Of a DNA stretch of 64,000 nt, positions 27,486-64,000 are shown piece after piece; the first letter of the stretch is position 1, and each line of letters opens with the position of its first letter. The notes under the pieces were generated by a model. The model was not told the DNA's origin, made no database searches, and saw only the letters and a program-made list of their open reading frames with translations. The stretch comes from Blasia pusilla (lineage: Eukaryota): positions 26,040,001 through 26,104,000 of the forward strand of contig CM114271.1 in NCBI GenBank assembly GCA_050084515.1, read 5' to 3'. A program made the translations under genes and the position numbers.

Positions 27486-27500
27486 ACAAAGAGAGAATGA
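27486..27500 (+). promoter_or_regulatory. Self-priming-type PBS of element A
   Basis: ACAAAGAGAGAATGA is the exact reverse complement of TCATTCTCTCTTTGT at 27308-27322, about 30 nt downstream of a TATA-like GGTATATC. Confidence 0.75.
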
Positions 27501-35600: not shown

Positions 35601-35794
35601 GTAATTGCGCAACATCGGGATACATTGAGGTATGCGACTATGCAGGGAGGTGGTTATCGACCTACTATCCGGAGGTTTCATCAAGGAGACTTTGTCTACT
35701 TGCAATAGATGGCACCAACAACGTTGGATGTGACTGCAGGGCGCACCATCTTGAGAGCGCGTGAGATTTTGCCATCTGGTGTTCTCTTGTTGGA

Positions 35795-36182
35795 TTCTCA
35801 ACATCCACTTCTCTGAGCACCATTAATCTGATCGCCCCCCTTGTATGAGGAGAAGCCTAGATTGATGGTTCCGACTTAGACGTCAAAGGAGTCATAGTAA
35901 TATGACGTAGGTGGTTTCAGGAGTAGCGTTACGAGGATTATCTAACCCAATTTTGCAAATTTTATCTATTAATAGAAACAAAGAAAATTAGGTAAAAACC
36001 GTAGTTTCTCGAGTAGTGAAATAGTCGGGAGCCGTAGCGGTAGCGCATTCTCGTATGTCGAGTTATCTCCATATTCAGGTTTCATTGAAGCTCTTATGTG
36101 AGCGCACGGACGGACTAGGCCACTTTGTATCTCTAGGTTTTGTAAAGATTTCAGTGATTTTGTCACTTTCTGTTTTCTCATA
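35795..36182. mobile_element. Unclassified 388-bp insertion in the integrase C-terminal region of element A
   Basis: Flanked by TCTCTTGTTGGA (35783-35794) and TCTCTTATTGGA (36183-36194). Removing it restores LPSGVLLLEGRDG; elements B and C lack it. Confidence 0.75.
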
Positions 36183-39100
36183 TCTCTTATTGGAGGGACG
36201 CGATGGTATGGTTTGGAAGGACCATGTGCGTAACTGTGCGCGATGTCATCTTCCAAAAATTGACGGTATAATTGATCCGAGCTTAGCAGTAGTTCCTGTA
36301 GGCTTGCGGTGTATGTTGTGTGGTTCAGCCACTACGCTAGTCTGTGATGGGTGTTCGAGAGGATGGCATATGGCATCTCTGACGCCATCTCTCACTAGGG
36401 TTTCTGAGGGACGATGGATGTGTCCCAGATGTACATAGAGTAGGTAGTTCTAGATTCAGACTTGTGTCTGTGACATGGATGACAAGAAGGGGACTAATGA
36501 TGGGGCCACATGAGCACCCAACCTTTTTGCTCTTAGCGTCCGAGAGATGTATATCATGGTAGGTAGGGATAGATGGCTACCTGGAGTTAGAGGGACCTAA
36601 CCACCAACTAGGGGGGCGATTGGAGATATTTTGGTACTTCTTGTCTCGTTGTTTGGATGACATGAGTTAGCATGGGATTTTACGTGTTTGTGTGTATGTT
36701 TGTCGACAACGATGTATGTTGTGTAGCGATGTGTATGCCCACGACAGCTGTCATGACTTTTCAAGATAGATGAGAGAGATCTGGTAGAGCGCCTTCACGA
36801 GTAGAGGAGGACACGCTCAGGAGGTCGAGGATGACGTGCTGAGGTCTTGAGAAACCTGAGAGAGCAAGTTTTCCCTTCGTTTCGGCTCATTTGGACCCAT
36901 ATAGAGCAACTTATTATTTCGAGTAAGTTTCCATTTTTGGTAGAGTTGAATTTCCACTTTGGGAAGTGGCCCTTGACCTAACCTATGGCTCTTGACCCGC
37001 TACAACAGGTCCAGAGCCAAGGAGGTGACTTGCAAGCATAGGTTAGCGAGGAGAGAGCTTGGGAGAGGGAAGGGGGTATACCTCAAGGAGAGAGAGAGAG
37101 AGAGAGCTTGAGAGCTCATTCTCTCTTTGTTGAACCTCTTGGCATGAGGCGACGGAGCTGTGGTCCCTTTCCTTGTGAGTGTAACCCAAGCCTCTCATTA
37201 GGAGAGTGAGTTTGGTTTGATATTGAGAGAGACACGTGAGAGTGCACACATTTGAGAGCTATGGTGTTGAGAGAGATTGAATCTACTTGATATATTGGAA
37301 ATATTTTGGTACTTCTTGTCTCGTTGTTTGGATCCCATGAGTTAGCATGGGATCGTGCGTGTTTGTGTGTATGTTTGTCAACAACGATGTATGTTGTGTA
37401 GCAATTTATATGCGCACAACACAGCCATTAGTAGCACATAGTAGTAAGAGCAACTGATGACCTGCAATTGGCAAACAAATTACATAAGAACAGAGAGGTA
37501 GTGCCCCGTATGAAAAAACGTAGAGGAAAATTTGAACACGGTGGCTTGCATTGCTAGATCAATGTTTTGCACTATAATCATCGGAATCAAATGTACTTAG
37601 GAATCGCAGGTTGCCACAAAGACGTTCGCAAGGGACACGAACTTAGAACCGCCACTGCAAGGAAACAACAAAGTATGGCGGCATGGTAGATCAGGATTAC
37701 AATTCCAGGAGATAGTAGGCAAAGATGAGGAGAGACCATCAATAGAGATAGGAAAGGAATGAATACGATTATGGCTGTAAGCCCTTGCGCTATGTAGTGA
37801 AAGCTAATATGGGCCGAACCTGGTGGAGGCGGCCAGTTACAGCTACAACAAATGCAGCCTATATAATTGCCACTCCCTAAAATAATGCAATTGCAAATCC
37901 ATGCTGTGGCGGACATTGTGCACGATTGGGCAGTAAGGCCGCTAAGATCGCAAAACAAAAAGATTCATCCAATGTGAAAAGACCTAAGAATTCAAATGGC
38001 ATAGCGTCCTAGGCCTTGGCGCAATAAAGAGGATGAAGAGCTTACAATAAGTTGTAACACGTATGTAAACTCAGCTTCATGAGGACCTGATTGCCAGAGA
38101 AGCACGCAGCCGCGCCATTGCATCCATGCCCCAAGCCGTTTTATTCTTACTAAGAATGGATAGGGATGCAATTGTGCATCAGAAATGAGAGACTAAATCT
38201 GTGTTGCGACAACGACCATACTCCTTGACAATAAGATAGCATCACAATTGCAATTGCGTTGTGGAGAGTGCATACACAATCTAGACATGACCAACATCCA
38301 TGGCCTATTGATATTGTCTGGAGAACAATTTATAGAGGCTGAATACCGCGAGCGGCGAGTCAGCAATCGAGAGCATAACACAGGAAGCATGAACTACCGA
38401 CAATAGTGGAAAACAATCCCAATGAATGGACACCGACAATTCCGTGTTTCCCTGTTTAGAACTCGAGTCTACCAAAGGCGTAACTCGCTCATCCGATGCT
38501 CTCACTGGTGAACACTTCTTGTGTGTAGCCATCGTAGCCTTCTTGCTGTGGCTGAAGCAAATCTCGAGGCTTGCGTAACAATCCATCAGCCAAACTAGTG
38601 ACGCATACATGTATTAGACACGTGGACACCTTGCGCGGTCTCTGCACTCCGAGGGATGTGTTGCGACCATTAGGGACGGTGGCAACACGGAGGGAGGCGG
38701 ACAAAGCTTGTGCACGTTGTAAGGCTACTGAGATATATTGCCAAAATTAAGGAGTGACTACAAAGAGAGAAGGACTATGAAGCAGTGATGGAGGCGGATG
38801 GGGACGGTGGAGGAGGATGCCATGGAGGGAAGGAGGAGGGAGATGGTTCGTGTGATATACCAAAATGGAGATCTCAGTCTCCTCTACGTTTTGATCCGCA
38901 TCATCGATCTTATAGTGAAGTATTTTTTGTTTTATTATGTTTTTTAGATTCTTGGTCTTATTATGGTTTCTCATGTAGGTATTATGATGCCCTTTGTTGT
39001 CTTGCCTCATTGTCAAGTTATGGACGTTTCCAAGATAACTCATGTTTTTCTTTCACACCACCCCTTTTTCTCTACATCCTTCCCTTTTGGCCATGCATAT

Positions 39101-45900: not shown

Positions 45901-48354
45901 AGCTGTGTCTCTATGAAGAGGATGGTTCTCTCTTGTCAATGCTTCATTAACTGCTTTTGCCACCATATCATTGGTATCACAATCCACTGTTCATATGAAT
46001 CTACTTCTGTATCAGCTCTTCAATGCAATGATGGTGAGCAGCTATGTGCTTAGTTCTTTTAGAATATCAGAGTTTCTCTATAACCTAGCTATTACAAGCA
46101 CACTTAGTGCAATAGCAACCACTCAGGTTAGATTGTAGAGGAAAGCACTAGACAAGCTGTACCACCAGACTACCTAGCATTCTCAAGCACACGTAGTGCA
46201 ATAGCAACCACTCAGATTAGCAGCAGTAGACATCTCAATGGCAAGCACTCAGATTAGTACTATTAGACACCTGGCGTCACAAGACTCACTGAACCCCTCA
46301 GGTCAGCAGACCTCTCAGTCTGGAAGCAGGAGCACACTGAACTACTGAGGTCAGAAGCACAATCCACTCAGGTAAGCCAAGCACACTCAGCGCTGCTCAA
46401 TCAGGTCCTCAGCTCAGAGAGTTCTGTACGAAAAGGTGTAAGAAATGTAATTTCGCAGGGCACCCTCAGGGGGTTATATACAGCCAAGAGAACGAGTTTC
46501 TAGGTTTTAGGGTTAGTGCCTGCCGCCCACAGTAATTCTCAGAATTACTGAGGTAACTATATAGTAACAAGAAGTTACCATTTACTGTGGTAAAACACTA
46601 AGTTACTATAGTAATTCTATCAGTTACTTTCTACTATAGTAAACTCCAAGTTACTATGTTTTTACAAGAAGTTCTTTCTGGTATCAGTAGATCTGCTTGT
46701 ATTTAGCAAGGTAATTGGACTTTGATTAGCACAGTAAACTACAATGTTACTTATGACCAATGTTGCCAAGCAAATCCCTCACAAAGCTGCCTCTCTGAGA
46801 ACCTTTGTTTCATGCAACAACATAACATTTTCACTGCATACTGATTTTGGGACGAGTACAATTGGCAGCTTTCAGAAGACTACCATCAGTAGAATCATAT
46901 TGATTTCTTTAACCTTTGCCGACGCTTAACCTTCAAGTTGGAAGTGTACCAGTACATGTGTATGTTCAACGTCTGAGTCTATACACTGATTTTTCATTTC
47001 AGGTTGGAGTATCGGTGGTAGATCGTTTCACATACTACACACTCCAGTTTTTTGAAAATCTTGATATCTTTTCAAATGAAACACTGCAAAGGTATGCTTA
47101 CACACCACTTCTTCAAGATATGGATTTTAGTATGTGTTAGGTATGTCCTTTTGAGCAAACCTTCTTAACACATCTGTTGAAGACAGTCCAGAATTTGGGA
47201 TAACATGCGAATCTCAATATGCAGGACTGCTGAATGTATAGAGTGAAGCTCAGACTGATGACTAACCAGTATTGGAAGTGTCTTTATATAGAAAATCTTC
47301 TCCTTATATAGAAAATCTTCTCACCAGTCATTTTTTCAAGCCTTCTAGTATCTGGATGATGCCGAAGTGGGAAGTAGGAAGTTGGATCTTCTTTTTGTCG
47401 CACAAAAATCTTACTTAGGAGTATTTGCTTATGTCTAGAGGAGTAGGGTGATTGGATTTATATGGAGGCTGCGTGGTAATATGAAATCATCTGTACTGTA
47501 TGCAGCCTTTTACAGACTTTTGACCCAAAACTGCTCGATTCACACATAGATTATAGGAGTGATCTCTTCTCTCGGGCTCTTGACAAGGTAGAGTTTGTCT
47601 TGTTAGCCAACCGAATGAAATGGATTCATACTTCTGCAAAAGCTTCATTGAAGCTGCACATCATCAGAAGATGATTTCGCAATGAAACCTTTTTCAATTA
47701 TTCTCATCTGGTGTATCTTTGCTCTCCATAGTTGAGCTGGTTGACACCATTAAGCCTTAGATTATAGCACGGTGCTGACTCTGGCTTTCTTCACAAATCA
47801 GGTTCCTTTGACAGATTTCTTTGGATCTGTAATGGAAGTAGAACATACGACTGCTGCATATCCAGGGTATTTTCATTCCTCAAAAAAGGACAAGGATACA
47901 ACATTTGAAGTGGAAAGAGTGTCAGGGGAAACTGGCCCTTCATGCGAGGGGGATTCTGCTGTAGATTACACAAAGGTAACTGGACTTGTTCTTCATCCTT
48001 GAATAGTGGTTTCAGTCTCCATGTGAAAATGCTGAATTCTTTTTGCACGTTGTTGAGCAGGGCTCCAGTTTCACTCTGTCATAAGTTCTGCCGGTTAAGT
48101 CCCTCATGGGAGGCATTTCAAAATGCTGGAATCATTCTTACACAAGGACAATGATTTCAGCAGCAATCCTGCCTACTCACCATGCACATTTGTGACAGGG
48201 TGACAATTGGCAGGAAAGGAGTGAAGCCAAGGGAGTTGCATTTGAGCTGTACAGCAGAAGAGCGGACGATCGTCCTGTTGTTTTTGGACTCATTGGACTT
48301 GCAATTGCTGTAAGCGTATCATCCCTGTTGTACCCGAACACTCAATCAAGTTAG
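42908..48354 (+). CDS. GPI8: GPI-anchor transamidase catalytic subunit (peptidase C13). Exons 42908-43038, 43393-43434, 43655-43799, 44269-44498, 44959-45016, 45406-45483, 47003-47091, 47506-47587, 47802-47975, 48199-48354
   Basis: Signal peptide; [45 protein letters not shown], catalytic TGHGG and [14 protein letters not shown]-terminal TM helix [18 protein letters not shown]. Intron phases are consistent; intron 2 is GC-AG. Confidence 0.96.
46057..46669. mobile_element. Probable solo LTR in intron 6 of GPI8
   Basis: Flanked by AGTTC/AGTTC (46052-46056, 46670-46674); termini TTTT...AAGA, each one change from TGTT...AACA; internal repeat caagcacac..agtgcaatagcaaccactcag twice; TATA-like TTATATA. 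Confidence 0.5.
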
Positions 48355-49384
48355 TGCTCTTCCTCAAACCAAAGAGGACTACTGAACCAAACTTGCTGAA
48401 GATTGACCTTCCAGAAGCTTCTCTCTGACCTTTCCAGATGGCAGAAAACTTTTCAGAGGACCTGAAGGGGATCATTTTTCTAACACCTCAACGGTTTGAT
48501 GCAACTCCGCAGCCAACATAGTAGCAAGCTATCAACTGGTGATAGAGTTAGGTGGCTTGTCCTTTAGCTTGTACCTAGTGCCTGTGATGCTTATGGCAAC
48601 TCTTCGTAGACACTGGAGTTGAGGCCAATTATTAGATAGAGTAGACTGGCTGTTCCTTGAAGTGCAGTGATACATGGTGCTTCTTTCGGGCTACAACCTG
48701 ACGACACCCTACACATGAGTATGTGATGGGAACCAGGAGGAATTTGTTTCTAGCATATCTACGTACTTTGGTGATTGTTATCATGCTGGAATGTCCCTTG
48801 GCATTTTTCAGATGTCCCCCAAATCTTGCAGATGCTTGCTGCTCTCAAGGTGACATGCAGTTGAGAAATAGTATTGGATTCTTGTTTTGGTCCCTAAATG
48901 CAGGTACAAGATTGAATTTCCTCTCGGCGTGGCCCTGCGTCGTGAGATATCAAACACTTAAGTTAGTAGCATCAAATTTGCTCGGGATATCCACAGATCA
49001 AATCTAGTTCTGTTTTGAAAAGGAACACTAAAAGATTTTCCTCCCGAAGCATAGTTTGCGTCTCTGCCCACATATGCTACCCCATTTCCTTTTTTATGAG
49101 AACTGAAAATCCTTTCAGAGGCTAACTTCCGAATAGTTACATGAGGTTTGAGGCCCCCATTGTGCCAAATGTAGAAGCCAATTGAAGGGAGTTATTCCTT
49201 GGGAGGCATATCGTATCAATTAATGACTTTTTGGTACATAAAATTGGATATGAGACATGATGCCAAGAATGTTCATAACGTCAAAGATGAAATTATGGGT
49301 TACAGACTCTTAGATTATGGATCTTGATAAATAGTGTTCAAAGTTCAGGACACACGGGATATTAATAAGAAATCCATTTGTAGC

Positions 49385-49543
49385 CAAGTTATTATTTTTC
49401 CATGACGTTGAATTTTCTAGGAATGCCCTTGTCCACAAGTTATTATTATTTTCATGACGTTGGACATCTAGGAATGCCCATGTCCACAAGTTATTATTAT
49501 TTTCATGACGTTGAATTTTCTAGGAATGCCCATGTCCACAAGG
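49385..49543 (+). repeat. Tandem minisatellite, 3 units of ~51-52 bp
   Basis: caagttattatt...catgacgttg...ctaggaatgccc.tgtcca repeated head-to-tail with no unique spacers. Confidence 0.9.
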
Positions 49544-52500
49544 ATATATAGCATTTAGATTTAGAAGATGACAATTCTTAGTTAGACGGACCTAATGAAC
49601 CTAATCAAAAGCTAGGAGGATGATTGGGGTGCTTCCATGTCATTTTTGGCATCGTATTTGAATACGATGCCAAAGATCATGATCGTATTTGAACTTACAC
49701 AATCACCCAAACCTTGTGGACACAACACCTTGATATATTTATATTCAAATAAAATCAATGATAACCTCACAAGACCTTAGGAAGACCATCACCTTAATTG
49801 TAATCAAGATTTGAGGGACTTTGTAAGCTAGCTCAAAGTTTCTTTGAGCTAACAATTTTTGTAATTTCCCTTTTACCTATAACGAGTAGTTTCTCATGAG
49901 TGAATAAGTAAATTGAGATCTTTGGGTGTCGCTTGTCACTCAGCTCTTGTGAAGCTCTCTTCCCGTTCCATTCCACATGAACAAGAATGCGGCCTTGGTA
50001 TTGTCAAAGAAAGGGTAGCAAATATAGTAAGCCATGAAGTTGAGTAGACATCAATAAAGCAACAATATAGGAGGGAAAAGTGAATGCCTTTTGTGAAATG
50101 CCATCGGGGCATGCTGCAGATGGTTGTATACAATATAAAGACTGACGTAGTTTTCATTGACCATAACGATGTAGGATACCAAGGTGTGATGCGTGCTGAT
50201 GTTAAGTTTAGCTATCGGGCTCGAGTCGTCTTATTAGCGTCGGATGAAGACAAAAACTTCGATTGGCGGACTTTCGTTTGACTAGTTACTAGCTAAGATG
50301 GCTTAGCAAAGTCTTCCTATATATTCTTCAAGCCTATATATAGGTTTGATAGAGTCTTCCTAGCTATCCAGGGTGGGGTGACCCTTATCCCCATAAATAG
50401 CTGCGCCTTTTCTTGCGTAAGGCTAGTCTTAGGGCGCATGCTTGTCTCACCTAGTGTTAGTCCTACGACTGGTTTCCTCATTATTCGTAGTCTTGTGACT
50501 ACCTAGTCTACGTTTAGACTTTGGTGAGTGAAACCAAAGTCTTTCCTCTATGGACAGACGATCATAACTTGCTTCTCGACTCCCTTGTCGTGCGAATCCA
50601 CATCGTAATACAACATACATCGCTGACATACCATACTCACATACATACATAATATAGATGAGAGCATCCACAAACACAAGTGTACCACAACTGAAATCCG
50701 TGAAAGAACTAATGTCATAAAACACGTATAGAATCACATACAATCGAACCAAACCCACTCCACGATGGGAGAATCCAGTCGAAGCTTGCGGGAACCATCA
50801 TAGCCAAGAGCTCTACTCACTACCAAGGCTAACTCCAAACGCAAGAGGCTCAACTCAAAGAACTAACTGTTCTTTGAGTGCACTCCACACTATATCCTCC
50901 AACCTAAGAGCGGGCCCTACTGGAAAAGTCACCCTCAACTGAGTCACCCTCAACTGAGTAACCCCCAACCCTATGTATGAAACCGCATCTCTACCTAGAC
51001 ACTACGGCCCTACATAAGGTATGGCCTCTACTAGCACACTATACTCTACAACATAATCCGTACGGTCATGACAGTTGTCGTGCGAATCCACATCGTCATA
51101 CAACATACATCGCTGACATACCATACTCACATACATACATAACATAGACGAGAGCATCCACAAACACAAGTGTACCACAACTCGTCCCCCTAACTGGCGG
51201 TTAGGTCCCTCTAACTCCCAGTTAGCCCTATACATCTACTACATGCTATACACCTTCGTGGGTGCACGAATCAGAAGGCCGGGTGCTAGGTTGCCCCATC
51301 GTTAGTCGCACATCTGTAATCCATATCATGCAAAGATCAAGTCATCTACCTCTCCTAAGTACATTGAGGACAAACCCACCTTCCAGTAGGAACAACATCC
51401 ATACGTGGACTCAAACATATCATGTGCCAACCCCTAGAACACCGATCAGACACCAACATACGGGCTGCGTTACCAGTAGACCCATACAACATGCACCTCA
51501 AGCTAGCACGTATCATGGCTAAGCTCGGGTCAACAATACCAATCACATTTGGAAGATGACATGGCCCACAATTACGCACATGGTCCTTCCAAACAACTCC
51601 ATCACGACCCTCCAACATGAGAACTCCAGAAGCTAACACCTCGCGCACTCGTAAAATAGTGCGGCCTGCCGTCACATCCAACGTTGTCGGTGCAATCTGA
51701 TGCAAATAGACATAGTCCCCCACATGGAACCTACGAATCGATGGTAAATAACCTCCACCCCGAATGGTTGCATACCGCAACGTATCCCTGTGTTGAGCAA
51801 TGGCAAGATTCTCAAAGGCAGTTGGCATAACTCTCCAAAAGAGCTCTGCCCGCTGAGAACACACTCATCCACATCTTTGGGTCATCAAGGTTCACCACCT
51901 CACTAGACTCCGACAATTGTCCTTTGGCAAGTCCGGATCTCGGCCGTATAACAGAAAATAAGGTGAGAAGGAAGCCAAGGATGCTTGGCGACTGAACCTA
52001 TACCCCATGGCTAACCATGGTAACTGAATATCCCAATCTCCAAGATGCCCCTTCTGTAGGCCATACTTGCGCAATGCCCTCTTTACCGTCTGAACCACAC
52101 GCTCAGCCAAACCATCTGCCTCTAGATGATCTTGAGACGTGGTCTGATGATCAATCAACGCCTTGTCACACAAGACCTGAAACTCACCCCAAACTCAGAC
52201 CTTGGTCGGTCAAGACTTCATTTGGTGCACCAAAATGACTAAACACTCTATCAAGAAACGCATAGGCCGTTCCCTCACTTGCCTTGTCAAGTAATGCCAC
52301 CAACTCAATCCACTTGGAGAAGTGGTCCACCATCACCAACACATATCGATGATATCGTACAGTCAACGGTAACGGTCCCGCAAAGTCCACACTCCAACGG
52401 TAACCCAACCCCATAATAGGCAAAGGATGTAACTGTGGTGTAGGGGCATTGAATGATGCCCTCACCTGGTCACAAACCATACAACGTGACACCAACTACT

Positions 52501-54704
52501 GCACCTGAGTATGCATGCCACGCCATCAATATTGACCAAGGAGTAAGCTATACGTACGCTTTACCCCAAAAGGTCCCAACTCCTCATGGGTATGTCGCAC
52601 AATGCGCTCTCTCTGAGCCAAATGCAACACTACTCGTACTCTACCATCCTCCCACACACGGAGAATATGTGTTCCCTCCAATCGATACCTCTTAGCACAT
52701 TGAAGAACACGGTCTCGCTCCTTGGCACTCACTATGCCTGGCACCCTACTGGTCCGTAGGAACTCCAACACCAACGCATCATCATGAATATCACGTTGAT
52801 CTGTACCACATCTCTAACCTTTGGATCTAAAGGCTAGCCATCTTCCCTCTGACAAGAGTAAGATGTCATGTGGTCCTCCATACTAGAGTCCACCCCTAAC
52901 CAACATAAAAAGGCAGATGCATGCCCACCTGGCACCATCTCCTCATCAACCTTGCTATGCCATCTAGCCCCAGTTGCATCCTCTTGGCTAGTACATGGGT
53001 TCCTACTCAACCGATCAGCATCAAGGTTGGCAACTCCAGGTCTATGTACCACCTGGAAGTCATACTCTTGTAAGATAAGAGCCCACCGTGCAAGCATCCA
53101 TGTAAGCTTGTCAGACTCCATCAATCACTTGAGCGGCTGGTGATCAGTAACAAGGATAAACTGTGTGCCAAACAAGTAACACCTAAAATGTGCCACAACC
53201 CACACTACTGCCAAGCACTCTCCCTCATATGAACTATAGCACGACTCCGCTGCATTATTCGAACGACTTGCATAGGCCACCAGAAACTCCATGTGCTCAT
53301 CATCATGTTGTGTCAACACCGCTCCAAGTCCCAACCTACTCCAATCAGTGTGTAACTGAAATGGGCGTCCTTTGATAGGTCTCCTCAAGATAGGCGCCGT
53401 CACCAAATGGGCCTTGAGCTCCACAAAAGCTCTCTCCTGATCATCTCCCCAGTGCCACTCCTAATCTGATTTCAGCAATTGGTTCAAAGGCTTTGCCATA
53501 ACACTAAATCCCTTCATATACCTCCAATAGTAGTTTGCCAATCCCATGAATGCCCGAACTCTATTCACATCTACTGGATGAGGAATAAGTGCAATAGCCT
53601 CCACCTTTGCTTGCTGAACTCCCAAACCACCTGGATAGATCACATGACCCAAGTACTCAACATCCTCATGGAAGAACTTACACTTTCCTCGATGCAAACG
53701 TAGACCATAAGCTTTCAACCGATCAAACACAATCTGCAAATGTATCTAATGCTCCTCCACCGTGTTACTGAACACCAAGATATCATCAATGTTACACCGG
53801 AAAAATCCAATCATGCTAGGATCTTGTCCATGACTCTCTGAAACTCGGCACGTGCATTCTTAAACCCAAAAGGTAAGAATTTCCACTGGTACAAACAATC
53901 TTTGCCATGAGAGTTGACACCCCAAAATGCTTTCTTGGCCTTGTCACTCTCGCGAATTGGCAACTGATGGTATCCTTCCCGAAGATCCAAAGTACTGAAA
54001 ATCTTTGCCTGTCCCACCACATCAAAGATCTCCTCAGGTGTAGGCATGGCATACCTATCGTCCTTGGTTTGCCGATTGATAGGACGGTAATCTCCACACA
54101 TCCGCCTATCTGTGTAGTTGCCATGCACATCCTTTTTAGCACGCATGATAGTGGTTGATGCATACTCTCCATACAAAAACTCCACTAATCCAACCTCCAA
54201 AAGGTCCAACGTCCTACTCTGAATCAAGTCCCTCTCCATATCACTATATCGGTAGGGATGACGGAAGATTGGCGAATCACTAGCCAAATCAATCAGTATA
54301 TTGGGTCCAACCAAAGCACCCAACTCCTTCATGCTTAAGGCAAAAAAACTCCTATAAGCACGTAGGAATTGTGTCAAGCGTCGTTTCTCACCTCCCCTAA
54401 GCTTGGGCCCAAGTAATGGCTCCCAAGTCTCCTCCACTAGCACCCTAGAGGGAGAGGATGATGCCATTGGCTGCTATCCAACCCCCTCACAAGATGGTAC
54501 ACCCTTAGCTACACCATCATCTGAGCAAATAACTCCTTCACCAGCATGAGCAACCAACTCCACATGCCCAACCATTACATCCCATTTACTCCAAGGATGC
54601 AAAATACTATCTTCCTCGCCCCCAACCGATGTCTCTACCGTCCCGTTAGCCATTGAGCTCATCACAAGGGGTGGAAGACCCATAGACATAGTCCAAAATC
54701 GACG

Positions 54705-55690
54705 TTACTCGGCCATCCTAAGACTCAAAATCCAGGTCAAACAATTCAGGTCCATGGCCTGACCCAACACATGACGTCGTGAAGCCTCAGAAATGGAAGC
54801 AACCGCTGTCACACCAGTAGCAAATCCCATCGCACGCTCTCTCTCATCAGCATTAGGCTCCACCAACTGTCGCACATGCGAATCCCATACAAGCCAAGAA
54901 TCACCTTCCTTGTAGGCATGTGACGAGGGAAAACTCACAAATTTTGGTAGTGCTATCCTAGGCTGGCCCACACGGTTCACCACTGCCATGGGTGACCGAT
55001 CAATAACCCTCACCACCTGAGAAAGTTGCCCATTATCCAAGATAATATCCATTGTAAGGCAAGGATCCCGCTGCACTGCATCATATGCTCGACGTAGAAC
55101 CTCCCTAGGCAACAAGTTTGTCCACCACAAGCGTGGACGATGTGCACGCGAGCCAACTCGCGCTGCATCCAACAACACCGTTGGTCCAATCCAAGAACAC
55201 TCGCCATCATCCGGGTCCGAGTGTCATCCAATAATGGAACATTCTCTAGAATGTAAGCTGGAGCACGTGCCTGATGAACCTGAAGATGTCGTAACACCCG
55301 TAACATCTCCCAAAACAATCGAGACCTAGGGTCGTGTAATCCCTCACCACGACCAGCACGTGTATGACCCTGACATGGCCATCCAGAAATCACCAAATCC
55401 ATAGGACCAACGCTCTCAAGGTCCTGCGCCCCCAACAATGCAATGTGTGACGGCAAAGCACGATGGTACCCACGAATAGCTGATGGCGGCAACAACTCAG
55501 GATATCTCTGCATCAAGTGACCAATATGTCGGGATGAGACTCTCTGGGCCGTCTCATCTCGCTCCACATACACGTATCTCCGCACAAGAATACCGGCCTA
55601 CAATACTGCAGCCAAAACCACTGCTAATCCCACCAAAGAGATCTAACACACAAATGCCCTCCGGTGGATACTGCCATACAATGGGTATAG
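54705..55690 (-). pseudogene. C5 cytosine DNA methyltransferase domain within Pol of element B (frameshifted)
   Basis: VLDLFGG, YVERD, DLVISGWPCQG, YILENV, RAHRPRLWWTNL, ERERAMGF and LGQAMD. Confidence 0.94.
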
Positions 55691-58600
55691 TATCCAAATG
55701 GGATAACCAATGGACAGAAGTAGGAGTCCGTGGGGCCTCCTCTTCCTCGTGAGGTATAATGACCTCACACCAAGCCCTTCGCACTAGGCGATCAACCTCC
55801 GCCATAGTGCACCTTTGAACTCCAAAGTGGCACATCCAACGATGAGGATGCCTTTGCTGCAAAACTAGGGACCTCCTCTACCTCCTCATGCATAGGAGAA
55901 TCCATAGCAGAAACATTACCCTCCAAAAAGTCTCCTGGCCAAGTGACTACTCCACTAAAACCAGCCACAGATGCTAACACTGTTGGGGAAGACCCTCCTG
56001 GTCGAGCCCCATAAATAAATCTCATTGGAACTTGGCTCATACGTCCATCCCCGAACTGCCAATCAGGTCTATAAGACGCTGTCTCAGTCCAGTAATCCAT
56101 TTGAAAACCCATCGGGTACAATACTGCTCCTCCAACTAGTACATCATACGACTCGGCTAATGTGACCACTGCAGGTACTCCCAACCGGGAGCTATCAGTC
56201 GCATGATTTGGTCTCAACTGTACAGAAAACTTCTCCCGTATCATGAATTGAGACCTATCATTGGCTCCTCCAAGTGATGTTTGAATCTGGAATGGGCAAG
56301 GCTCAAGCTCTGACCTCCGAATACCCAAACCAATACATGCCGCCTTTCCCAACATCAAAGGTTGGGCACTAGAGTCTAACAACACTCTATCTGGTCTATA
56401 CACATGTCCTGTAGGACTCACCCATCGGAATATCCCACTCCGATTGTTCAACATACATACACATGGTGTAAGCCTCTCACGATCAATGGCTGGCCGGGCT
56501 GGTAATGCATCCATCTTCGCCGCTGCTGCCTGCCAAGTAGCACTGATACTCAATGCTAAACTTGATATAGAGGGTCGCTCCACCGCAACACCCTCATCCA
56601 CCTTAGCACGTGTAGCAGTAACACCCCCACGTTCACACAACGTGGCTGCTAGCTGAAATACAGGAGCTTAGTCAACTCCTAAAGCCATCAGCTCCGTAGC
56701 CGAAAAAAATGGGGATTCCAACACAGAAGTTGCCATCCGCAATACTGCACTGGATGCTGCATCTGTGTCTACTACACGCGATGTAGATGCCTCAGTCCCC
56801 ACTTTAGGCTCAATAGGCCGTGTAGGAACCATGGATGGAGTCCTAAGCACCTTAGACAACAAGAATGACTGGGGAAGCCTAGCCTGCCTCCCAACCTCAC
56901 CCCTCTGCCGGTCCAACTCCACAGTAGCACCACGTGGCTCTGACGCTCGAGTGGCTCCTCTTGTAACTACAACTGATGCCTCAACTTGTGCTGCACTCGC
57001 CATAGAAGAGAGATCATCCCCTCCATAAGAGGTGGAAGCCCCTGCTCCTGAACGTGCTCTATGCTGGATACCAGCCATAGTAGCAAACTTCTGCTCCAAC
57101 TGCTCAATCCTGGCAGCCATAGCTGACTCTGTTGTAGTGGTACGGGTAGCCACCGTAGGCTCTCCAACCACTGGTCCACCTCTACCACCCCTACCACCTC
57201 TACCACCTCGGCCTCTCGGAGCTACTCCACCACGGCCGCGACCTGATCTCAACTCTGGATGAAGATCAAAGCAACGCTCTCGAGGATGACCTGGTCTCCC
57301 GCAATGATCACAGTGAGTTGGGGCCGACTGAGGCTCATCCTCCAAAGTCCGTCTCCCATCCTCTTGGGGACAAAACCTCCTAACATGATCACCTCCACAT
57401 GTCCAAGATGACTGTCCTTGCTATGGGGCAGCAAATGAAGGCAATGGTCTCTACGCAAGTGTCCCTCTAGGACCTGACTGAGGTCGTGTGTACCCCCACG
57501 ACTCCCACTACTACTACCACCACCACTACTATGAGACTGTGAGGTGGACTGCTGAACACGAGAAGTAGTAGTTGTATCCCTACTGAATGCGGATGTCAAC
57601 ACTCTCTCCTCCACCATGTTAAGCTCAATCTTCTCAAATAGAGCAAACACATGGGTCAATGTGGGTGAATCATCATTCATATGAGTAGCATCACGTACCC
57701 TACGGTGCAACTCTCTGTCCAAGATCCCATACCAAAACTGGACTGCCTGAGCCTCAGTCACACCCTGGGTAACTAAAATCAAGCGTTGCATACGAGTGTA
57801 TGCCTCACGAAGACTCTCACTAGTCTTTCGCTCAAATTCCTGAAGACTCCTCAACTTCTCTATCTTCACTCCCTGATAGTTCTTCTTCAACCTCTTGAAG
57901 AATTCTGCAACCGGGCTGAATGATGGTGAGGCACTAGTACCTCCATGGGTACCTCCACTGGTACCCCCACTCCGGCTCGTACTCGTACCACTCAACGTCG
58001 GGCTGGCTAGCATAGTAGGAGCACTACTACCAATACCACCATGGGTCATAGACACATAGCCTGGAGACCAATATTGTCTCCACGCCTCAATCTCAGCAAA
58101 TGCAACATGGTCCTTCCTAAACTCATGGTAATCATCCATGGGTGGTCCCTCCAAGTGCTGAAACAACCCCTTCCAAACCAAGAAGGGTGTAAACAACGTG
58201 GCGTTCCACAACATCTGCATATCACACCACGTATCAAACTCCCGAATGAAGTCCTCCAACTCAATGGTGCCCACTGCACCCAAGTATCGTTTTGGGCCCT
58301 TCATGGCCCCATATATCCCGTCCATGTCCCAAATCAATGGAGCTGCAACACTTGATAACAACGTAGAAGACTCGGTGTTTGGAACACCCTCGTCCTCCTC
58401 TTCATCAACCGTTGGAAGTGGAAAAGGTAGCCGATATCTCAATCCACTCTGTGTAAAACCACCATTGTCCGCACCACGGTCGCCAACCATACCAACAGAC
58501 ACCTCCGTGATGACCAACGTCGATGCCGCACCACCACCAAATCACCACCACTAAGTAACCAAGTGACATCGATGTCGCTGTACTATTCTAGCTCTACTAG

Positions 58601-60040
58601 CTATGGGTGTAGGCAACCTAACCTATCATCACCACAAGAAGCCTCCCACGGTCTACTGGTCATCACTCTAGCCTCACTACCGGTAGGTAGCACACAGGAG
58701 TAAAACTACTCTAAAATCAACGTCAATCCTAACAATGGGCGCGCAAGCAAGAAGCAACGATGGAGGGGATCCAAACACATGAAGTCCAACGACAACCCTC
58801 CAATGGCAAATGGAAATCAAGGTCACACAATCCACCAAACATGGCGCCCCCTGAATCCACAGAACCCACCACACAATTCTAACGCAATAGCTACTCCGCC
58901 GTTGGTCGATGACGTGCTAGTCGCACTCGTAGCCCCTGAAAATATCACCTGCATGGAGAGGCTACACCATACTATGCGCTAGAGGTCCATCAACCAAAAA
59001 CCCGAGATGCATAAAGCACCTAACACATCTCCGAACAACACCAAATGAGCTACATTAGTGTGTACAATGACATAGTTAAGAACTCAGCAGTTAAGCGTCT
59101 TCCAGGCAGAATAACCCAAAGATGGGTGACCAGTTATGCAACACTCAACTCACAAATCCTGCAAAAATTGCCTCACGCCCAAGCAAACAAGATTTCTTGC
59201 TTGCTCCTTGCTCCTTACTCCGCTTCTCACGCCCACTCACCCCAAGCTACCATGAGTTGCCTCAAAGCCTCAAAACGCCGAGAGATGCTCGAGACATGCC
59301 CCTATCGCCCCGTTCACCACGCTCCGCCATGCTTTGCTATGGAGAGAGGCCCAATCAAGACGCCCCCAACTGGATAGGCGTCTCTAATAATGGACGAATC
59401 ACCAACCAACCAGCCCCTCCGATCTGTTGTCCACCATAGCCAGACCTTGAGCTAGTCCATGAAATTTCGATCAAAAATTACTCCACAAATCCTCAACCAA
59501 AATTGAATCTCTTTCAACCAGAATTCAATTGGCCACAATAACTATCTCTCCACAAAAAATCAGCTACAATCAAGCTCTGTACTCCGAGCTAAAAATCAGA
59601 CAAACTTGCTGTCCGTACACCTCCAGAATTGCAAATCCAACAACGCTTCCGTCCACATTCATGCACACAGAAATCCGCAATGCTCCACACACTCAAGCAG
59701 ATAGCTTCACATGAGAGCACAATACAAGTAGTCATAGGAACCTCTCACCCAATCTGGATGAACTTCAACAGAGCTTCCACACTCCAAGCTCTCCACATAA
59801 GAAAACCGTCAAACACGAACCAGAATCTTCAATCCTTGATAACTTCCAACTCCCTTAACAAAATCCGGCGATCTAAAGAGCGTTGGAAATCTCTCAGCAA
59901 GACGCTTCTTTCCCAACCAAACACGCACTAGATTCACACCTCCAACATAGGCCACAATCCATGAACATCCACGGCTGAGTACATAATCAGCCCTAACAAG
60001 TTCCTACTGATCCATGATCAAAGCAACCATGGATCTACTC

Positions 60041-60053
60041 TAGTTCTTTGAGT
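60041..60053 (-). promoter_or_regulatory. Self-priming-type PBS of element B
   Basis: 13-nt exact complement of 60215-60227, which lies about 25-30 nt downstream of a TATA-like site (GGATAAAG in A1, GGATATAG in A2). Confidence 0.75.
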
Positions 60054-60511
60054 GAAATCCGTGAAAAAAATACTGTCATAAAACACGTATAGAATCACAT
60101 ACAATCGAGCCAAACCCACTCCATGATGGGAGAATCCAGGTCTAAGCTTGCGGGAACCACCATAGCCAAGAGCTCTACTAACTACCAAGGCTAACTCCGA
60201 ACGCAACAGGCTCAACTCAAAGAACTAACTATTCTTTGAGTGCACTCCACACTTTATCCTCCAACCTAAGAGCGGGCCCTACTAGAAAAGTCATCCTCAA
60301 GTGAGTAACCCTCAAGTGAGTAACCCCCAACCCTATGTATGAAATCGCATCTCTACCTAGACACTACGACCCTACATAAGGTATGGCCTCTACTAGCACA
60401 CTATACTCTACGACATAATCCGTATGGTCATGACACCCTGCTATTGTGAGCCCCATAGACCTACCTATTCGCGACTTCTCCAAGAATATCTATGGATGCC
60501 CTTGGTGATTT

Positions 60512-63500
60512 TGTCATGCGCATACCCATCATTACACAACATACATCGTTGTCATCAAACACACACACAAACACACACGATCCCATGCTAACTCATGGCA
60601 TCCATACACAAGAAGTACCAAAATATCTCCAATCGCCCCGGTAGCTGGTGGTTAGGTCCCTCTAACTCCATATAGCCATCTATCCCTACCTACCACGACA
60701 TACATCTCTAGGACACTAAGAGCAGAAAGGTCGGGTGCTCATGTGGCCCCATCGTTAGTCGCCTTCCTATCATCCATGTCACAGAAAAAGTCGGAATCAA
60801 AATCTACCTAGTATCTCCTCTATGTACATCTGGGACACATCCATCATCCCCGAGGAACCCTAGTGAGAGGTGGGATCAAGCATGCCATATGCCAACCTCT
60901 CGAACATCCATCACAGACTAGCATCGTGGCCGCACCACGGGCAGAACCACACAACATACAATGCAAGCCTGAAGGAACTACTGCTAAGCTCGGATCTACT
61001 GTACCATCAATGTTAGAAAGGTGACATGGCGCACAATTACGCACATGGTCCTTCCATACCATACCATCGCGTTCCTCCAACAAGAGAACACCGGATGGCA
61101 AAACGTCTCGCACTCTCAGGATAGTGCGCCTTGCAGTCACATCCAACATCGTCAGTGCCATCTGTTGCAAGTAGACATAATCTCCTTGATGAAACCTCCG
61201 GATAGGTGGTCGATAACCACCATCCCGAATAGTCGCATACCTCAACGTATCTCGATGATGCGCAATCGCCAAGTTCTCGAACGCCATGGGCATCACTCTC
61301 CGAAACAACTCACCCCTATGAGAACATGCTCGCATCCATACATCTGGGTCATCAAGGTCCAGCACCTCACCAGCATCTCGACGAATGGCCTCAGGTAAAT
61401 CTGGCTCTTGGCCATAAAGTAGCAAGTACGGTGAAAAAGACGCTAAGGATGCATGCCTGCTGAATCTGTATCCCATCGCCAACCATGGCAAGTGGAGGTC
61501 TCAATCTGCTAGGTGACCTCTATACAAGCCATACTTGCATAAACCCCTCTTCACTTTCTGCACAACTCTCTCCTCTAATCCATCCTCCTCAGGATGATCT
61601 CGCAAAGTCGTGCGGTGGTGGATCAGCGCTTGATCATACAAGGCCTGGAACTCACCGCAAAACTAGGTACCCTGGTCTGTGAACACCTCAGCCGGTGCAC
61701 CATAATGACTCAACACTCTGTCAAGGAAGGCATAAGCTACTCCCTCACTCGCTTTGTCAGGCAATGCAACCAACTCGATCCACTTCGAGAATTGCTCACA
61801 CTTCTCGAAGTAAACGACTCTGATGCTCTGTCAAAGGCAAAGGTTCTGCAAAATCCCAACTCCATCTATACCCTAAGCCCATGATCGATAATGGATGCAA
61901 TTGAGGAGTCGGAGCATTGAACGATGCTTGGACCCAATCACACACCATGCACATGGCAACAAACTGCTGAACGTCAGTCTGCATGCCTCGCCACCAATAC
62001 TGAATCTGGAGCAAGTTGTACGTCCGCTTCACCCCAAAGTGACCCAACTCCTCCTAGGCATGTTGCACTAGTTGTGCTCTCTGCAAAGGATGCGGCATTA
62101 CGCGTACTCTGCCATCCTCCCAAACCCTCAAAACATGTGTCCCCTCCCAACGGAACTGTCTGGCCCGCTGTAGGATCCGATCCCGCACTCTAGCACTCAC
62201 GGTGCTCGCAACGTTGCTAGTACGAAGGTACTCCGAGACTACTCCATCATCATGAATATCTCGGCCACTTGTCATCTCCTCACTTGCCTCGGGATCCAAG
62301 GACTCTCCACTAGACCTCGCCATCAAAGTCTCCACACTCTGGCTCTCCATAGCCAACATGCCTAAATAGGCTGATGCGTGCCATCATGACACTAACTCCT
62401 CATCACTCTCTCCATGCCATCGAGCTCTAGTTGCATCTCGCTGACTCGGGCATAGGTTAAGACTCAACCCATCTGCATCCTGGTTGAGCGTCCCAGGTCT
62501 ATGTACCACGTGAAAATCATACTCCTGCAATAACAGAGCCTATCTCGCAAGCTTCCTTGTAAGCTTTTCGGACTCCATCAACCACTTCAATGGTTGATGA
62601 TAAGTGATGATGATAAACGGGTTGCCGAATAAGTAACACCTGAAATGCGCGATAGCCCACACTGCAGCCAAGCACTCACCCTCATACGAATTGTACTTCA
62701 CCTCTGTAGCGTTGTTGGAGCGGCTAGCGTAAGCCACCATGAACTCTCTACCCTCATCATCATGCTAGATGAGCATCGCTCCAAGCCCCAACATGCTCCA
62801 ATATGTTTCCCAGGTCTATGCACCACATGGAAATCAAACTCCTTCAACAACAGAGCTCACCTCGCAAGCTTCCATATAAGCTTGTCGGACTCCATCAACC
62901 ACTTAAGTGGCTCATGATCAGAAATAATGGTAAAGGGGTTGCCAAATAAACAACATCTGAAATACGCGATAGCCCACAATGCAGCCAAGCACTCATCCTC
63001 ATACGAGTTATACTTTGCCTCTGCAGCGTTGTTTGAGCGACTAGCGTAAGCCACTACAAACTCTCTACCCTCATCGTCATGCTGGGTGAGCATGGCTCCA
63101 AGCCCCAACATGCTCCAATCTATATGCAATTGGAAAGGATGACCCTTGATCGGTCTGCTCAATATGGGCGCGAACGTCAATCTATCCTTCAGCAAGTGAA
63201 ATGCTCTCTCCTACTCATCCCCCAATGCCACTCCTGATCTACCTTGGTCAGCAAGGTTAGCGGCTTTGCAATCAAACTAAAATGATCGGTCATCCACGAC
63301 AATGGTAAACCGTGTGGGCCAGCCTAGGATGGCACTACCCACATTTGTGAGTTTTCCCTCATCACATGCCTACAGGGAAGGTGGTCCCGGGCTTGTATGG
63401 GATTCTCATGAGCGACAGTTGGTGGAGCCTAACGCTGATGAGAAAGGACGCCCCCTAATCGGCCTCCTCAAGATGGGCGCGGACGTCAACCTGTCCTTGA

Positions 63501-64000
63501 GCAACTGAAATGCTTTCTCTTGCTCATCCCCCCAATGCCACTCGTGATCCACCTTGGTAAGCAAGGTTAGCGGCTTCGCAATCAAATTGAATCCCTTGAT
63601 GTACCGCCGATAGAAGTTCGCCAATCCCATGAATGCCCGAACACGACTCACATCTGTAGGGCGTGGAATGCGTGAGATAGCCTCTACCTTGGTCTGCTAA
63701 ACACCAAGGCCCCTTGGGTATATCGTATGACCCAAGTACTCAATCTGGTCATAGAAGAACTTGCACTTGCCTGGATGTAGCTTCAGCCCATGTAATTGCA
63801 ATCGTTGAAACACCTCCTCTAGATGTCGCTCATGCTCCTCAATCGTGGCGCTAAAGACTACAATGTCATCAATATAATACCTAGCAAAATCCCGACCAGC
63901 CAAGATCCTATCCATGACCCTCTGAAACTCAGCCGGGGCGTTCTTTAATCCAAATGGTAAGAACGACCACTTGGACAAACTCCCCGCATAACCTTCTACT
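60512..64000 (-). mobile_element. Element C (same family as A), 3' part: RT (YIDD), repeated RNase H segments, INT, PHD and a single B repeat
   Basis: PFGLKNAP...YIDD (63697-63978); RNase H segments at 62857-63195 and 62540-62800; INT; PHD CMLC..CDGCSRGWHMAC..CPRC; B repeat 60633-60512 ending TGACA, with no A2-B2 after it. Confidence 0.9.

Follow-up and report, generated by a model that had tools for sequence, protein, structure and literature searches.

A decayed Ty3/gypsy element of the liverwort Blasia pusilla belongs to a bryophyte family that carries a predicted Dnmt3-type cytosine methyltransferase

Element B lies on the reverse strand of a 64,000-nucleotide stretch of the Blasia pusilla assembly (contig CM114271.1, positions 26,040,001 to 26,104,000; the whole stretch is called the window hereafter) and is a decayed insertion of a bryophyte Ty3/gypsy retrotransposon family that carries a C5 cytosine methyltransferase (DNMT) domain, Dnmt3-type by profile and predicted fold, as a regular coding part. 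A second element of the window, A, located at about 27075-37421 on the forward strand, has the layout and gene order of B. Both window copies are dead, and the B copy of the domain is a pseudogene. We assign a probability of roughly 85% to the reading that a DNMT-bearing Ty3/gypsy family exists in bryophytes, that its domain has the identity given here and was present before A and B separated, and that it has been under selection.

The domain in B spans 54705-55787 and was recognized by a Pfam match, by its motifs and by alignment to P0001, its closest intact relative, to which the two larger pieces of the B domain are 79% identical. The DNA_methylase family PF00145 matches B at 55010-55597 (E 1.8e-9, 37.9 bits with a cut-off of 22). 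It is also above this cut-off in element A (29.6 bits) and in L026, L005 and L069, three loci from a search of metagenomes with seven aligned intact domains, which yielded 127 relatives, with 80 loci (L001-L080) kept. All seven motifs checked are kept in B, namely LFGG (I), YVYVE (II), PCQ (IV), ENV (VI), HRPR (VIII), ERAMG (IX) and GQA (X), and their order is the canonical one of I, IV (PC), VI (ENV), VIII (RxR), IX and X; the strings GWPCQG, YILENV and RAHRPR are each found in the domain. A back-translated GWPCQG pattern hits exactly two sites in the window, 55368-55384 (-) in B and 31927-31943 (+) in A, with 0.33 sites expected by chance and two reached in 3 of 100 shuffles. The element-encoded domain is accordingly annotated as a C5 cytosine methyltransferase with predicted catalysis. 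A preliminary description of this DNA had called the catalytic motifs of B intact, which holds for them as motifs but not for the gene. In the alignment to P0001, two frameshifts break the domain up into three frame pieces (55787-55602, 55591-55199 and 55196-54705), with about 5 residues missing at the second frameshift, and one premature stop stands at the domain end; because the domain is frameshifted, PC/ENV and RxR are located in different frames. The domain lies on the reverse strand at the place described, but it had been ended at 55690, whereas it starts about 100 nt upstream of that position (motif I lies near 55650).

The features of element B, in its own 5' to 3' direction after the line for the whole element, are given below.

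50586-60435 (-): element B as a whole, Ty3/gypsy-type, 9.85 kb, layout A1 - coding - B1 - A2 - B2, from its repeat pairs
60436-60439 (-): target-site duplication AGGG, 5' copy, read from the sequence
60053-60435 (-): repeat A1, the 5' long terminal repeat (LTR), 94.3% identical to A2 over 383 nt
57249-58541 (-): gag region, an open frame of 430 aa that aligns to gag of the Marchantia models P0006 and P0009 and of L026
within 56668-57420 (-): CCHC zinc-knuckle part of Gag, CWTCGGDH..C and CDHCGRPGHPRERC in the translation
55792-56667 (-): protease (PR) region, with LLDSSAQ in B and LLDSGAQ in relatives
54705-55787 (-): Dnmt3-type C5 cytosine methyltransferase domain (by profile and predicted fold of relatives), broken
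55787-55602 (-): piece of the domain with motif I
55591-55199 (-): piece of the domain with motifs II, IV and VI
55196-54705 (-): piece of the domain with motifs VIII, IX and X, closed by the premature stop
54477-54704 (-): C-terminal tail of the first open reading frame (ORF1) past the methyltransferase fold, aligning to the tails of L005 and L028
54474-54476 (-): conserved in-frame stop TAG between DNMT and reverse transcriptase, followed by CAG CCA ATG GCA; a candidate leaky stop
53461-54473 (-): reverse transcriptase (RT) in two frame pieces, Pfam RVT_1 E 6.5e-12 and 2e-5
53125-53460 (-): RNase H (RH), Pfam RT_RNaseH_2 E 4.4e-32
52184-52813 (-): integrase (IN), with a zinc-binding part at 52526-52813 and the catalytic core at 52184-52495, Pfam rve E 1.2e-10
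51355-51864 (-): C-terminal extension of integrase with a PHD finger at its end, Pfam PHD E 3.7e-7 at residues 130-168
51075-51182 (-): repeat B1, 108 nt, 97.2% identical to B2, with a purine-rich tract (CCAGTTAGGGGGACGA) directly before it
50692-51073 (-): repeat A2, the 3' LTR, paired with A1
50586-50692 (-): repeat B2, the 3' end of the element, paired with B1
50582-50585 (-): target-site duplication AGGG, 3' copy, read from the sequence

Element B starts with TGTCATGAC and ends with CGCACGACA, so that it carries the TG...CA termini of an LTR element together with a 4-bp target duplication, AGGG, on both sides. The Ty3/gypsy order of RT (RVT_1), RNase H (RT_RNaseH or RT_RNaseH_2) and DDE integrase (rve) was found by Pfam in both B and L026, and the domain lies between the protease region at 55792-56667 and RT at 53461-54473, as had been described. 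For the gag region of B, Retrotrans_gag gave only E 0.0037, below the Pfam cut-off, while zf-CCHC was detected in the homologous ORF of L026 (E 1.2e-7). A Pfam scan of the B protease region gave no match; DSG is the active-site motif of aspartic proteases. No primer-binding site was recognized by eye in the stretch after repeat A1 (CTCAAAGAAC...), with no tRNA matching tried, and this stretch is conserved in L063 and L058.

The arrangement A1 - coding - B1 - A2 - B2 is a circular permutation of a two-LTR element with an LTR of the form B+A. The purine tract precedes B1 and not A2, and either form, A...B or B...A, would have TG at its start and CA at its end. The same arrangement, with termini and a purine tract before B1 as in B, is seen in three complete metagenome elements (L063, L062 and L058); they account for the full A - coding - B - A - B pattern in 3 of 12 long loci, the remainder being incomplete. 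Target duplications were read as CATA/CATA in L063 and AACA/AATA in L062.

Both profile and predicted fold place the domain with the Dnmt3 type. When solved sequences were searched with a profile built from 7 intact relatives, DNMT3A, 3B or 3C took the first 27 of 32 places (best E 7.7e-11), followed by plant DRM (1.4e-5) and DNMT2 (2e-4), and no bacterial enzyme appeared among the solved sequences at E 0.001 or better. An AlphaFold model of P0001, used in place of the broken B copy and computed from a 51-row alignment, reached a local confidence score (pLDDT) of 93 and a predicted template modelling score (pTM) of 0.91. The Foldseek matches listed for this model, down to rank 50, were all DNMT3A/B/C chains (E 5.7e-19 to 5.8e-16), with template modelling (TM) scores by target length of 0.77-0.85 for catalytic-domain chains and 0.84 for the match with the best E. 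A prediction from a 7-row alignment had been discarded for its pLDDT of 39. The motif order is normal and not rearranged as in DRM enzymes. Like host DNMT3A, 3B and 3C (6f57, 6w89, 8tci), the element domain combines the fold (TM 0.80-0.85) with motif order I-X, PC/ENV/RxR and a short target-recognition region. By contrast, it is only about 20-23% identical to them, has LGQAMD in motif X where the host DNMT3s have LGRSWS, is encoded within a mobile element, and lacks both PWWP and ADD, a PHD finger being found instead at the far end of integrase.

The position of the domain within the coding region is equally regular. Among 56 copies with a placeable RT start, a stop lies exactly at the DNMT-RT junction (offset 0 or -1 codon) in 52, including A and B. 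The nearest stops across the 56 copies are TAG in 36, TAA in 19 and TGA in 1, and the six bases that follow are CAACCC (47 copies), CAACCA (3), CAACCT (1) or, in B, CAGCCA (1). DNMT and RT share one frame in 40 of the 56, the others having indels. The best-preserved copy, L026, reads in a single frame through 957 aa, a stop, 438 aa, a second stop that is the conserved one, and at least 766 aa. As judged from the aligned copies, the coding region of working elements is one frame with Gag (CCHC) - PR - DNMT, an in-frame TAG or TAA, and RT - RNase H - IN - PHD, and DNMT is the last domain of ORF1.

Plant viruses have a leaky-stop context, UAG-CAR-YYA. Because the CAA-CCN context in the elements resembles such leaky stops, RT and IN would be made only on readthrough, and from the position and context of the stop we consider this readthrough fairly probable. 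ORF1 would then yield Gag-PR-DNMT and stop readthrough would add RT-RH-IN-PHD, with the methyltransferase made together with Gag and protease and in excess of RT and IN. The polymerase readthrough of plant viruses and gammaretroviruses is similar in having an in-frame UAG after an abundant upstream product, followed by CAA or CAG and a pyrimidine-rich codon. It differs in that here protease and DNMT stand upstream of the stop, the sixth base is mostly C and not A, and readthrough is a prediction. Placement in ORF1 before a conserved stop offers a concrete hypothesis on dosage and packaging of the enzyme.

In the mechanism that we propose, the element's protease would probably cut DNMT out of the ORF1 product, the enzyme would probably methylate the element's own new cDNA or new insertion, and the PHD finger on integrase would probably guide the choice of landing site. 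Self-methylation of this kind was proposed for Gypsy-DNMT3 and DIRS-DNMT3 elements in a 2018 study by de Mendoza et al. (Nat Commun 9:1341, PMC5890265), and by analogy with them we advance self-methylation of cDNA tentatively, as a possibility with less than an even chance. The alternative that survives best holds that the domain is functional while its target is not the element's own DNA: it could act on RNA (genomic RNA, or a tRNA primer as DNMT2 would), on host chromatin near the target, or by binding without catalysis. If synthesized with Gag, the domain would enter the particle alongside both RNA and cDNA. The only published test of a Gypsy-DNMT3 domain, that of KnitGypsy-Dnmt3 from the charophyte alga Klebsormidium nitens, detected no DNA methylation on expression in yeast, a result that its authors call inconclusive, and the same authors raised RNA methylation for LINE-DNMT (PMC5890265). 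However, the sequence and fold are nearest to DNMT3A/B/C, with DNMT2 reaching only E 2e-4 by profile and none found among the Foldseek matches listed down to rank 50, and the residues for C5 transfer are conserved. We judge a target other than the element's own DNA unlikely.

Selection on the domain was assessed at several depths. Between A and B, a codon alignment from 26 tblastn high-scoring segment pairs (1752 codon pairs; Nei-Gojobori counts with Jukes-Cantor correction) gave DNMT a dN/dS of 0.23, a rough ratio since dS is near saturation, and a pN/pS of 0.44 (bootstrap 0.37-0.51). Reading the identical DNMT codons in the +1 frame raised pN/pS to 0.95, a contrast that, unlike the ratio itself, is not rough. 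In the same alignment dN/dS was 0.12 for RT, 0.13 for RH, 0.11 for IN, 0.12 for PR and 0.22 for gag. In comparisons of B with Sphagnum-type copies, where dS is 0.7-0.8, DNMT has a dN of 0.15-0.16 and an omega (dN/dS) of about 0.2, and dN is 0.11-0.14 for RT and 0.08-0.11 for RH. Pairwise Nei-Gojobori estimates for 44 copies (four near-duplicates removed) were binned by dS, with the following median omega values.

dS 0.1-0.2, 282 pairs: DNMT 0.59, RT 0.48, PR 0.76
dS 0.2-0.4, 488 pairs: DNMT 0.59, RT 0.37, PR 0.68
dS 0.4-0.8, 35 pairs: DNMT 0.25, RT 0.18, PR 0.33
dS above 1.5, 11 pairs: DNMT 0.14, RT 0.12

The fall of omega with divergence is the pattern expected if recent changes are neutral decay and older ones have been filtered in active lineages. 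Purifying selection on DNMT is somewhat weaker than on RT and IN, and about as strong as or stronger than on PR. The comparison of DNMT with RT between A and B that had been suggested beforehand came out in the predicted direction (0.23 against 0.12). A dN/dS near 1 was not seen between A and B (0.23) or between B and Sphagnum-type copies (about 0.2), the control being at about 1, and the proposal that the domain was kept by selection is borne out by ratios of 0.14-0.25 in comparisons with dS above 0.4.

These ratios bear directly on a second alternative, in which the domain was acquired once and is an inert passenger that drifts without function and persists since deletion is rare. It is true that most copies contain stops, that DNMT changes more rapidly than RT and IN in all comparisons, and that no methylation by the K. 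nitens domain was seen in yeast (PMC5890265). A passenger would nonetheless not account for a deeper dN/dS of 0.14-0.25 against about 1 in the shifted-frame control, nor for the residues that are kept: in a set of 51 sequences that are 31-76% identical, neither the catalytic Cys nor the ENV Glu varies, and both arginines of RxR are almost invariant. The predicted fold is also complete and confident. We consider an inert passenger very improbable.

That the domain is ancestral to A and B and was not recently captured, as had been suggested, is supported by colinearity, a shared boundary and agreeing DNMT and RT trees. The same domain occupies the same position in both elements, with 31615-32605 of A matching 55697-54717 of B at 65% nucleotide identity over 1002 nt; the domain of A and a third element, C, are as follows.

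31528-32618 (+): DNMT domain of element A, with 3 in-frame stops and 1 frameshift; motif VI is ENK and motif VIII is HGPR
60512-64000 (-): element C, of family A and 83-88% identical to A, leaving the window before its DNMT

The identity between A and B is 71.5% over 2774 nt from RT to IN, and at the protein level 0.43 for gag, 0.52 for PR, 0.55 for DNMT, 0.65 for RT, 0.67 for RH and 0.69 for IN. Within element A, the A repeats are 85% and the B repeats 91% identical to each other. The repeats and untranslated regions of the two families had been described as diverged beyond recognition. This stands for the longer A repeat, the LTR proper, which gave no blastn match between A and B, but not for the 3' part with the B repeat, which is 68.5% identical over 594 nt.

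Outside the window, a word-indexed protein search with the B fragment returned 29 relatives, the best named ones being from Marchantia polymorpha (60-76% in strong matches), Sphagnum troendelagicum (76%) and Calypogeia fissa (73%); two weaker Marchantia models have 50% and 70% identity over a smaller part of the query. The nearest protein cluster is assigned to Eukaryota, with Streptophyta the most frequent group. The Marchantia models P0006 and P0009 and the metagenome ORFs P0018 and P0017 read gag - CCHC - PR - DNMT, and the Marchantia, Calypogeia and metagenome ORFs share one end point shortly past the methyltransferase. The Marchantia gene models Mp_4g09160 and Mp_8g17980 are ORF1 of such elements, a warning for annotation given that many bryophyte gene models named DNA (cytosine-5)-methyltransferase are transposon ORFs. 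Of the metagenome loci that extend at least 1200 bp downstream of DNMT, 49 of 52 have RT on that side, and of those that extend at least 1200 bp upstream, 56 of 59 have PR there. The situation in which most copies are without the domain was not encountered, as DNMT is upstream of RT in 54 of 57 RT copies with enough upstream DNA, a count that is biased because nearly all copies were found through DNMT. Apart from the seed copies, the loci and the window contain only 6 RT stretches; DNMT is upstream in 4 of them, including A and B of the window, and one of the two without it is a 96-nt antisense scrap, a sample of 6 being too small to conclude from.

DNMT has the same placement and the same downstream boundary, an in-frame stop followed by CAA/CAG-CCN, in four deep lineages: A of the window; B together with the types of Marchantia and Sphagnum; L026; and L069. 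Trees of DNMT (30 rows) and of RT plus RH (23 rows) agree on the deep order, which from the outgroup inward is the distant P0028, then L069, then A and L026, then the clade of B, Marchantia and Sphagnum-type copies, and the divergence of DNMT rises with that of RT. The metagenome copies fall together with the two Sphagnum proteins. Sphagnum-type copies, which are separated from B by a dS of only 0.7-0.8, nest among liverwort copies, and enforcing liverwort monophyly costs 14.7 log-likelihood units (approximately unbiased test, p 0.011) in a test whose group was chosen after the first tree had been seen. As far as the sequences go, this nesting may reflect transfer between mosses and liverworts or, equally well, old paralogous lineages.

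The agreement between domain and element histories leaves little room for a third alternative, that A and B each recently and independently captured a fragment of a host DNMT3, their shared position being a coincidence or a hotspot. Retrotransposons have acquired DNMTs more than once (PMC5890265), and among distant relatives 21 of 25 long representatives have the domain at another site, either between RNase H and integrase or upstream of the latter. A and B, however, are colinear across the domain and its flanks and share the stop with its CAR-CCA boundary; their DNMTs group with other element DNMTs in trees that agree deep with those of RT, and the scaling of DNMT with RT divergence also speaks against separate captures. 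Independent capture is thus highly improbable, even more so than an inert passenger.

The family is transcribed on its sense strand in the host liverwort. Reads of three stranded RNA-seq runs, which share their species label with the DNA run, were placed on 46001-64000 at a likeness of at least 90%. First mates fell on the forward strand over B and C in all three runs, with a depth under 11 on the other strand, and reached 40-65 in the DNMT bins at 54401-55600, 60-150 over RT-IN and 7-40 over gag and the 5' region. A spliced forward-strand gene at about 46600-49200 has a strand pattern opposite to that of B and C, which fixes the strandedness of the libraries, so that the RNA over B and C comes from the reverse strand, the sense strand of the elements. 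Transcripts, which the preliminary description had proposed to look for, were therefore found in all three runs. There are many sites at which no read agrees with the window sequence, and given this divergence most of the transcripts derive from other members of the family. At 55622, the first frameshift of B, 35-38 reads in two runs continue differently, and the reverse complement of the continuation resembles the linker between motifs I and II in relatives.

The family is also highly repeated, and its DNMT bins show no shortfall against PR and gag. In the DNA run, summed contig depth was 16,000-116,000 over B, which should not be read as a copy number, while single contigs of the unique flank had a depth of 4-11; in the DNMT bins the summed depth was 29.5k-47.5k, similar to PR and gag. 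RNA and DNA reads cover the DNMT junctions without a dip. An assembly artefact, or an unrelated DNMT pseudogene nested in one copy, is of negligible probability: the window is rich in nested and rearranged repeats such as an inverted 164-nt DNMT piece in C, but the same order is found again in two window elements, in 80 metagenome loci independent of one another and in Marchantia, Sphagnum and Calypogeia gene models, and read coverage does not dip at the junctions.

Several observations weigh against the reading of an ancestral, selected domain in a transcribed family. The B copy is itself unable to make an enzyme, with its frameshifts and stop in DNMT and further breaks elsewhere in the element. 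Most relatives are dead, the aligned DNMT being free of stops in only 4 of 82 copies, and the catalytic C, E, R and R are all retained in only 36 of 79. Synonymous sites between A and B are near saturation (pS 0.66), and the codon alignments were anchored on protein similarity, a bias toward low dN. Close pairs have a high omega (0.59 for DNMT at dS 0.1-0.4), so the selection signal depends on the deeper comparisons. In RNA run X22, only 231 of 6503 placed reads have a likeness of at least 99% to the window, while 4334 lie at 90-95%. Finally, readthrough was deduced from position and context alone, and CAA-CCC fits CAR-YYA in the first five bases only.

Decay in the metagenome copies amounts to a median of 1.0 stops per 100 codons in DNMT, 0.63 in RT, 0.96 in PR and 1.19 in RH. 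Dead copies have lost motif residues mainly by replacement of Arg with His, Cys, Gln or a stop and of Gln with a stop (CGN to CAN, TGN or TGA; CAG to TAG), which are C-to-T or G-to-A changes, and the differences between reads and window are mainly transitions. Such transition-rich losses are the signature expected from deamination of methylated cytosines. The observed/expected ratio of CpG is 0.57 in B and 0.76 in A, with 0.35-0.60 in the other measured stretches.

Elements of this kind have been known since 2018, and the window elements are Gypsy-DNMT3 elements in a new host lineage, the bryophytes. KnitGypsy-Dnmt3 was described as a Gypsy element whose Pol ORF contains a non-rearranged Dnmt3 domain, with A-coding-B-A-B repeats and a Ka/Ks below 0.2 (PMC5890265). 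It thus resembles the window elements in its Ty3/gypsy domain set with a non-rearranged Dnmt3-type domain inside the polyprotein, in the A - coding - B - A - B repeats "as in DIRS" (here in A, B, L058, L062 and L063), and in genomic copies that are silenced and decayed; its Ka/Ks compares with 0.14-0.25 here at dS above 0.4 and with 0.59 here among close decayed copies (PMC5890265). The two differ, in a comparison by description only, in that the host here is a liverwort with relatives in Marchantia, Calypogeia and Sphagnum, and in that DNMT here closes the Gag-PR-DNMT frame before the stop, while that of KnitGypsy-Dnmt3 is described merely as "in the Pol polyprotein ORF" (PMC5890265). The paper places the acquisition "in the K. 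nitens lineage", and its survey table contains Physcomitrella and neither Marchantia nor Sphagnum (PMC5890265). The dinoflagellate SymbioDIRS-Dnmt3 likewise has a Dnmt3-type domain in a polyprotein, A - coding - B - A - B repeats and two domain orders. It is, however, a DIRS element with a tyrosine recombinase and no DDE integrase, and its RT is unrelated according to the same paper (PMC5890265). A 2026 preprint mentions "streptophytes (Gypsy-DNMT3)", in the part consulted without further detail (10.64898/2026.05.21.726589).

More distant relatives carry the domain at another place. An exhaustive search with P0001 returned 4268 cluster representatives at E<=0.001, 965 at <=1e-10 and 269 at <=1e-30. 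In 25 long representatives examined with Pfam, DNMT follows RNase H in 20, with integrase also downstream in 18 of those; P0085 has DNMT upstream of integrase in a protein without RT, P0044 and P0054 have the window-type order CCHC - DNMT - RT, and two have DNMT alone, near the end of a long protein. A PHD finger follows integrase in 15 of the 25. A search with the DNMT part of one of these proteins, P0028, gave 162 relatives, nearly all unnamed, one being from the green alga Monoraphidium neglectum. The green-alga type of Gypsy shares with the window elements a related DNMT (34-44% identical, with WPCQ, ILENV, AHR.R..WTN and LGQA.D.N), the same RT, RH and IN families and a C-terminal PHD. It differs in having DNMT between RNase H and integrase, where the window elements have it between protease and RT. 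As annotated from sequence, the pairing of a Dnmt3-type domain with a PHD-tailed integrase therefore exists with the methyltransferase at two different places. In P0047, of the algal type, a Tudor-like domain (PF21743) follows the PHD finger as a further chromatin-reader module on the integrase tail.

A wider scenario can be sketched, which we offer as speculative and rather doubtful: a PHD-bearing Ty3/gypsy superfamily found across green plants and algae would have carried a Dnmt3-type DNMT since before bryophytes and green algae split, the domain would have been relocated within the polyprotein to lie between RNase H and integrase in the algal type and at the tail of Gag-PR-DNMT before a leaky stop in the bryophyte type, the enzyme made at Gag level in bryophytes would be packaged with the cDNA so that new copies are pre-methylated, and passage between mosses and liverworts may have occurred. 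A transposon with its own de novo methyltransferase is a paradox because cytosine methylation is the main means by which plants silence transposons. The published case concerns one alga, few copies and an activity that was not demonstrated; here the element kind is old, selected, very abundant and transcribed in bryophytes, which include Marchantia. Given that Marchantia is a model, the benefit of the enzyme to the element becomes directly testable in a tractable plant. Our literature search found no paper on DNMT-bearing Gypsy elements in liverworts or mosses, or on the RH-DNMT-IN-PHD type, which is no proof of their being unpublished. Details that may be new are the DNMT at the tail of ORF1 before a conserved stop, the second architecture in algal relatives, sense transcription and the hint of incongruence between mosses and liverworts.

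Other observations concern rearrangements near B. Element C terminates at a single B repeat (60512-60698) with no A2 or B2 beyond, as expected after recombination between B1 and B2, and element B, with its own target duplication, starts 76 nt beyond it (gap 60436-60511). The inverted 164-nt piece in C, at 63283-63446, is 89% identical to the C-terminal half of a B-type DNMT (compared with 54839-55002) and lies between two internal duplications; a few RNA reads cross its joint. Reads that link 51827 to 52829 and leave out 1001 nt occur in each of the three RNA runs (15-31 per run), with non-canonical ends and, in two runs, with 8 other letters in between; this join is probably a transcribed deleted genomic copy and not splicing. 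The forward-strand transcript at 46600-49200 has GT..AG introns at 47090-47503, 47586-47799 and 47974-48196 and no long open frame, and is possibly a non-coding RNA or a gene rich in untranslated regions.

Elsewhere in the window, Ty1/copia-type pieces at 493-1038 (-) and 22695-24619 (+) include copia gag, a polymerase SH3-like domain and RVT_2, and an inverted repeat pair (175-2118 and 22019-20048) is 83% identical. A CLC-e chloride channel that includes a CBS domain has exons at 5847-8420 (+), which are closest to liverwort proteins and place the host among the liverworts; for the last large exon, identity is 65% with Marchantia polymorpha, 63% with M. paleacea, 60-62% with Riccia, 53% with Calypogeia and 44-46% with mosses.

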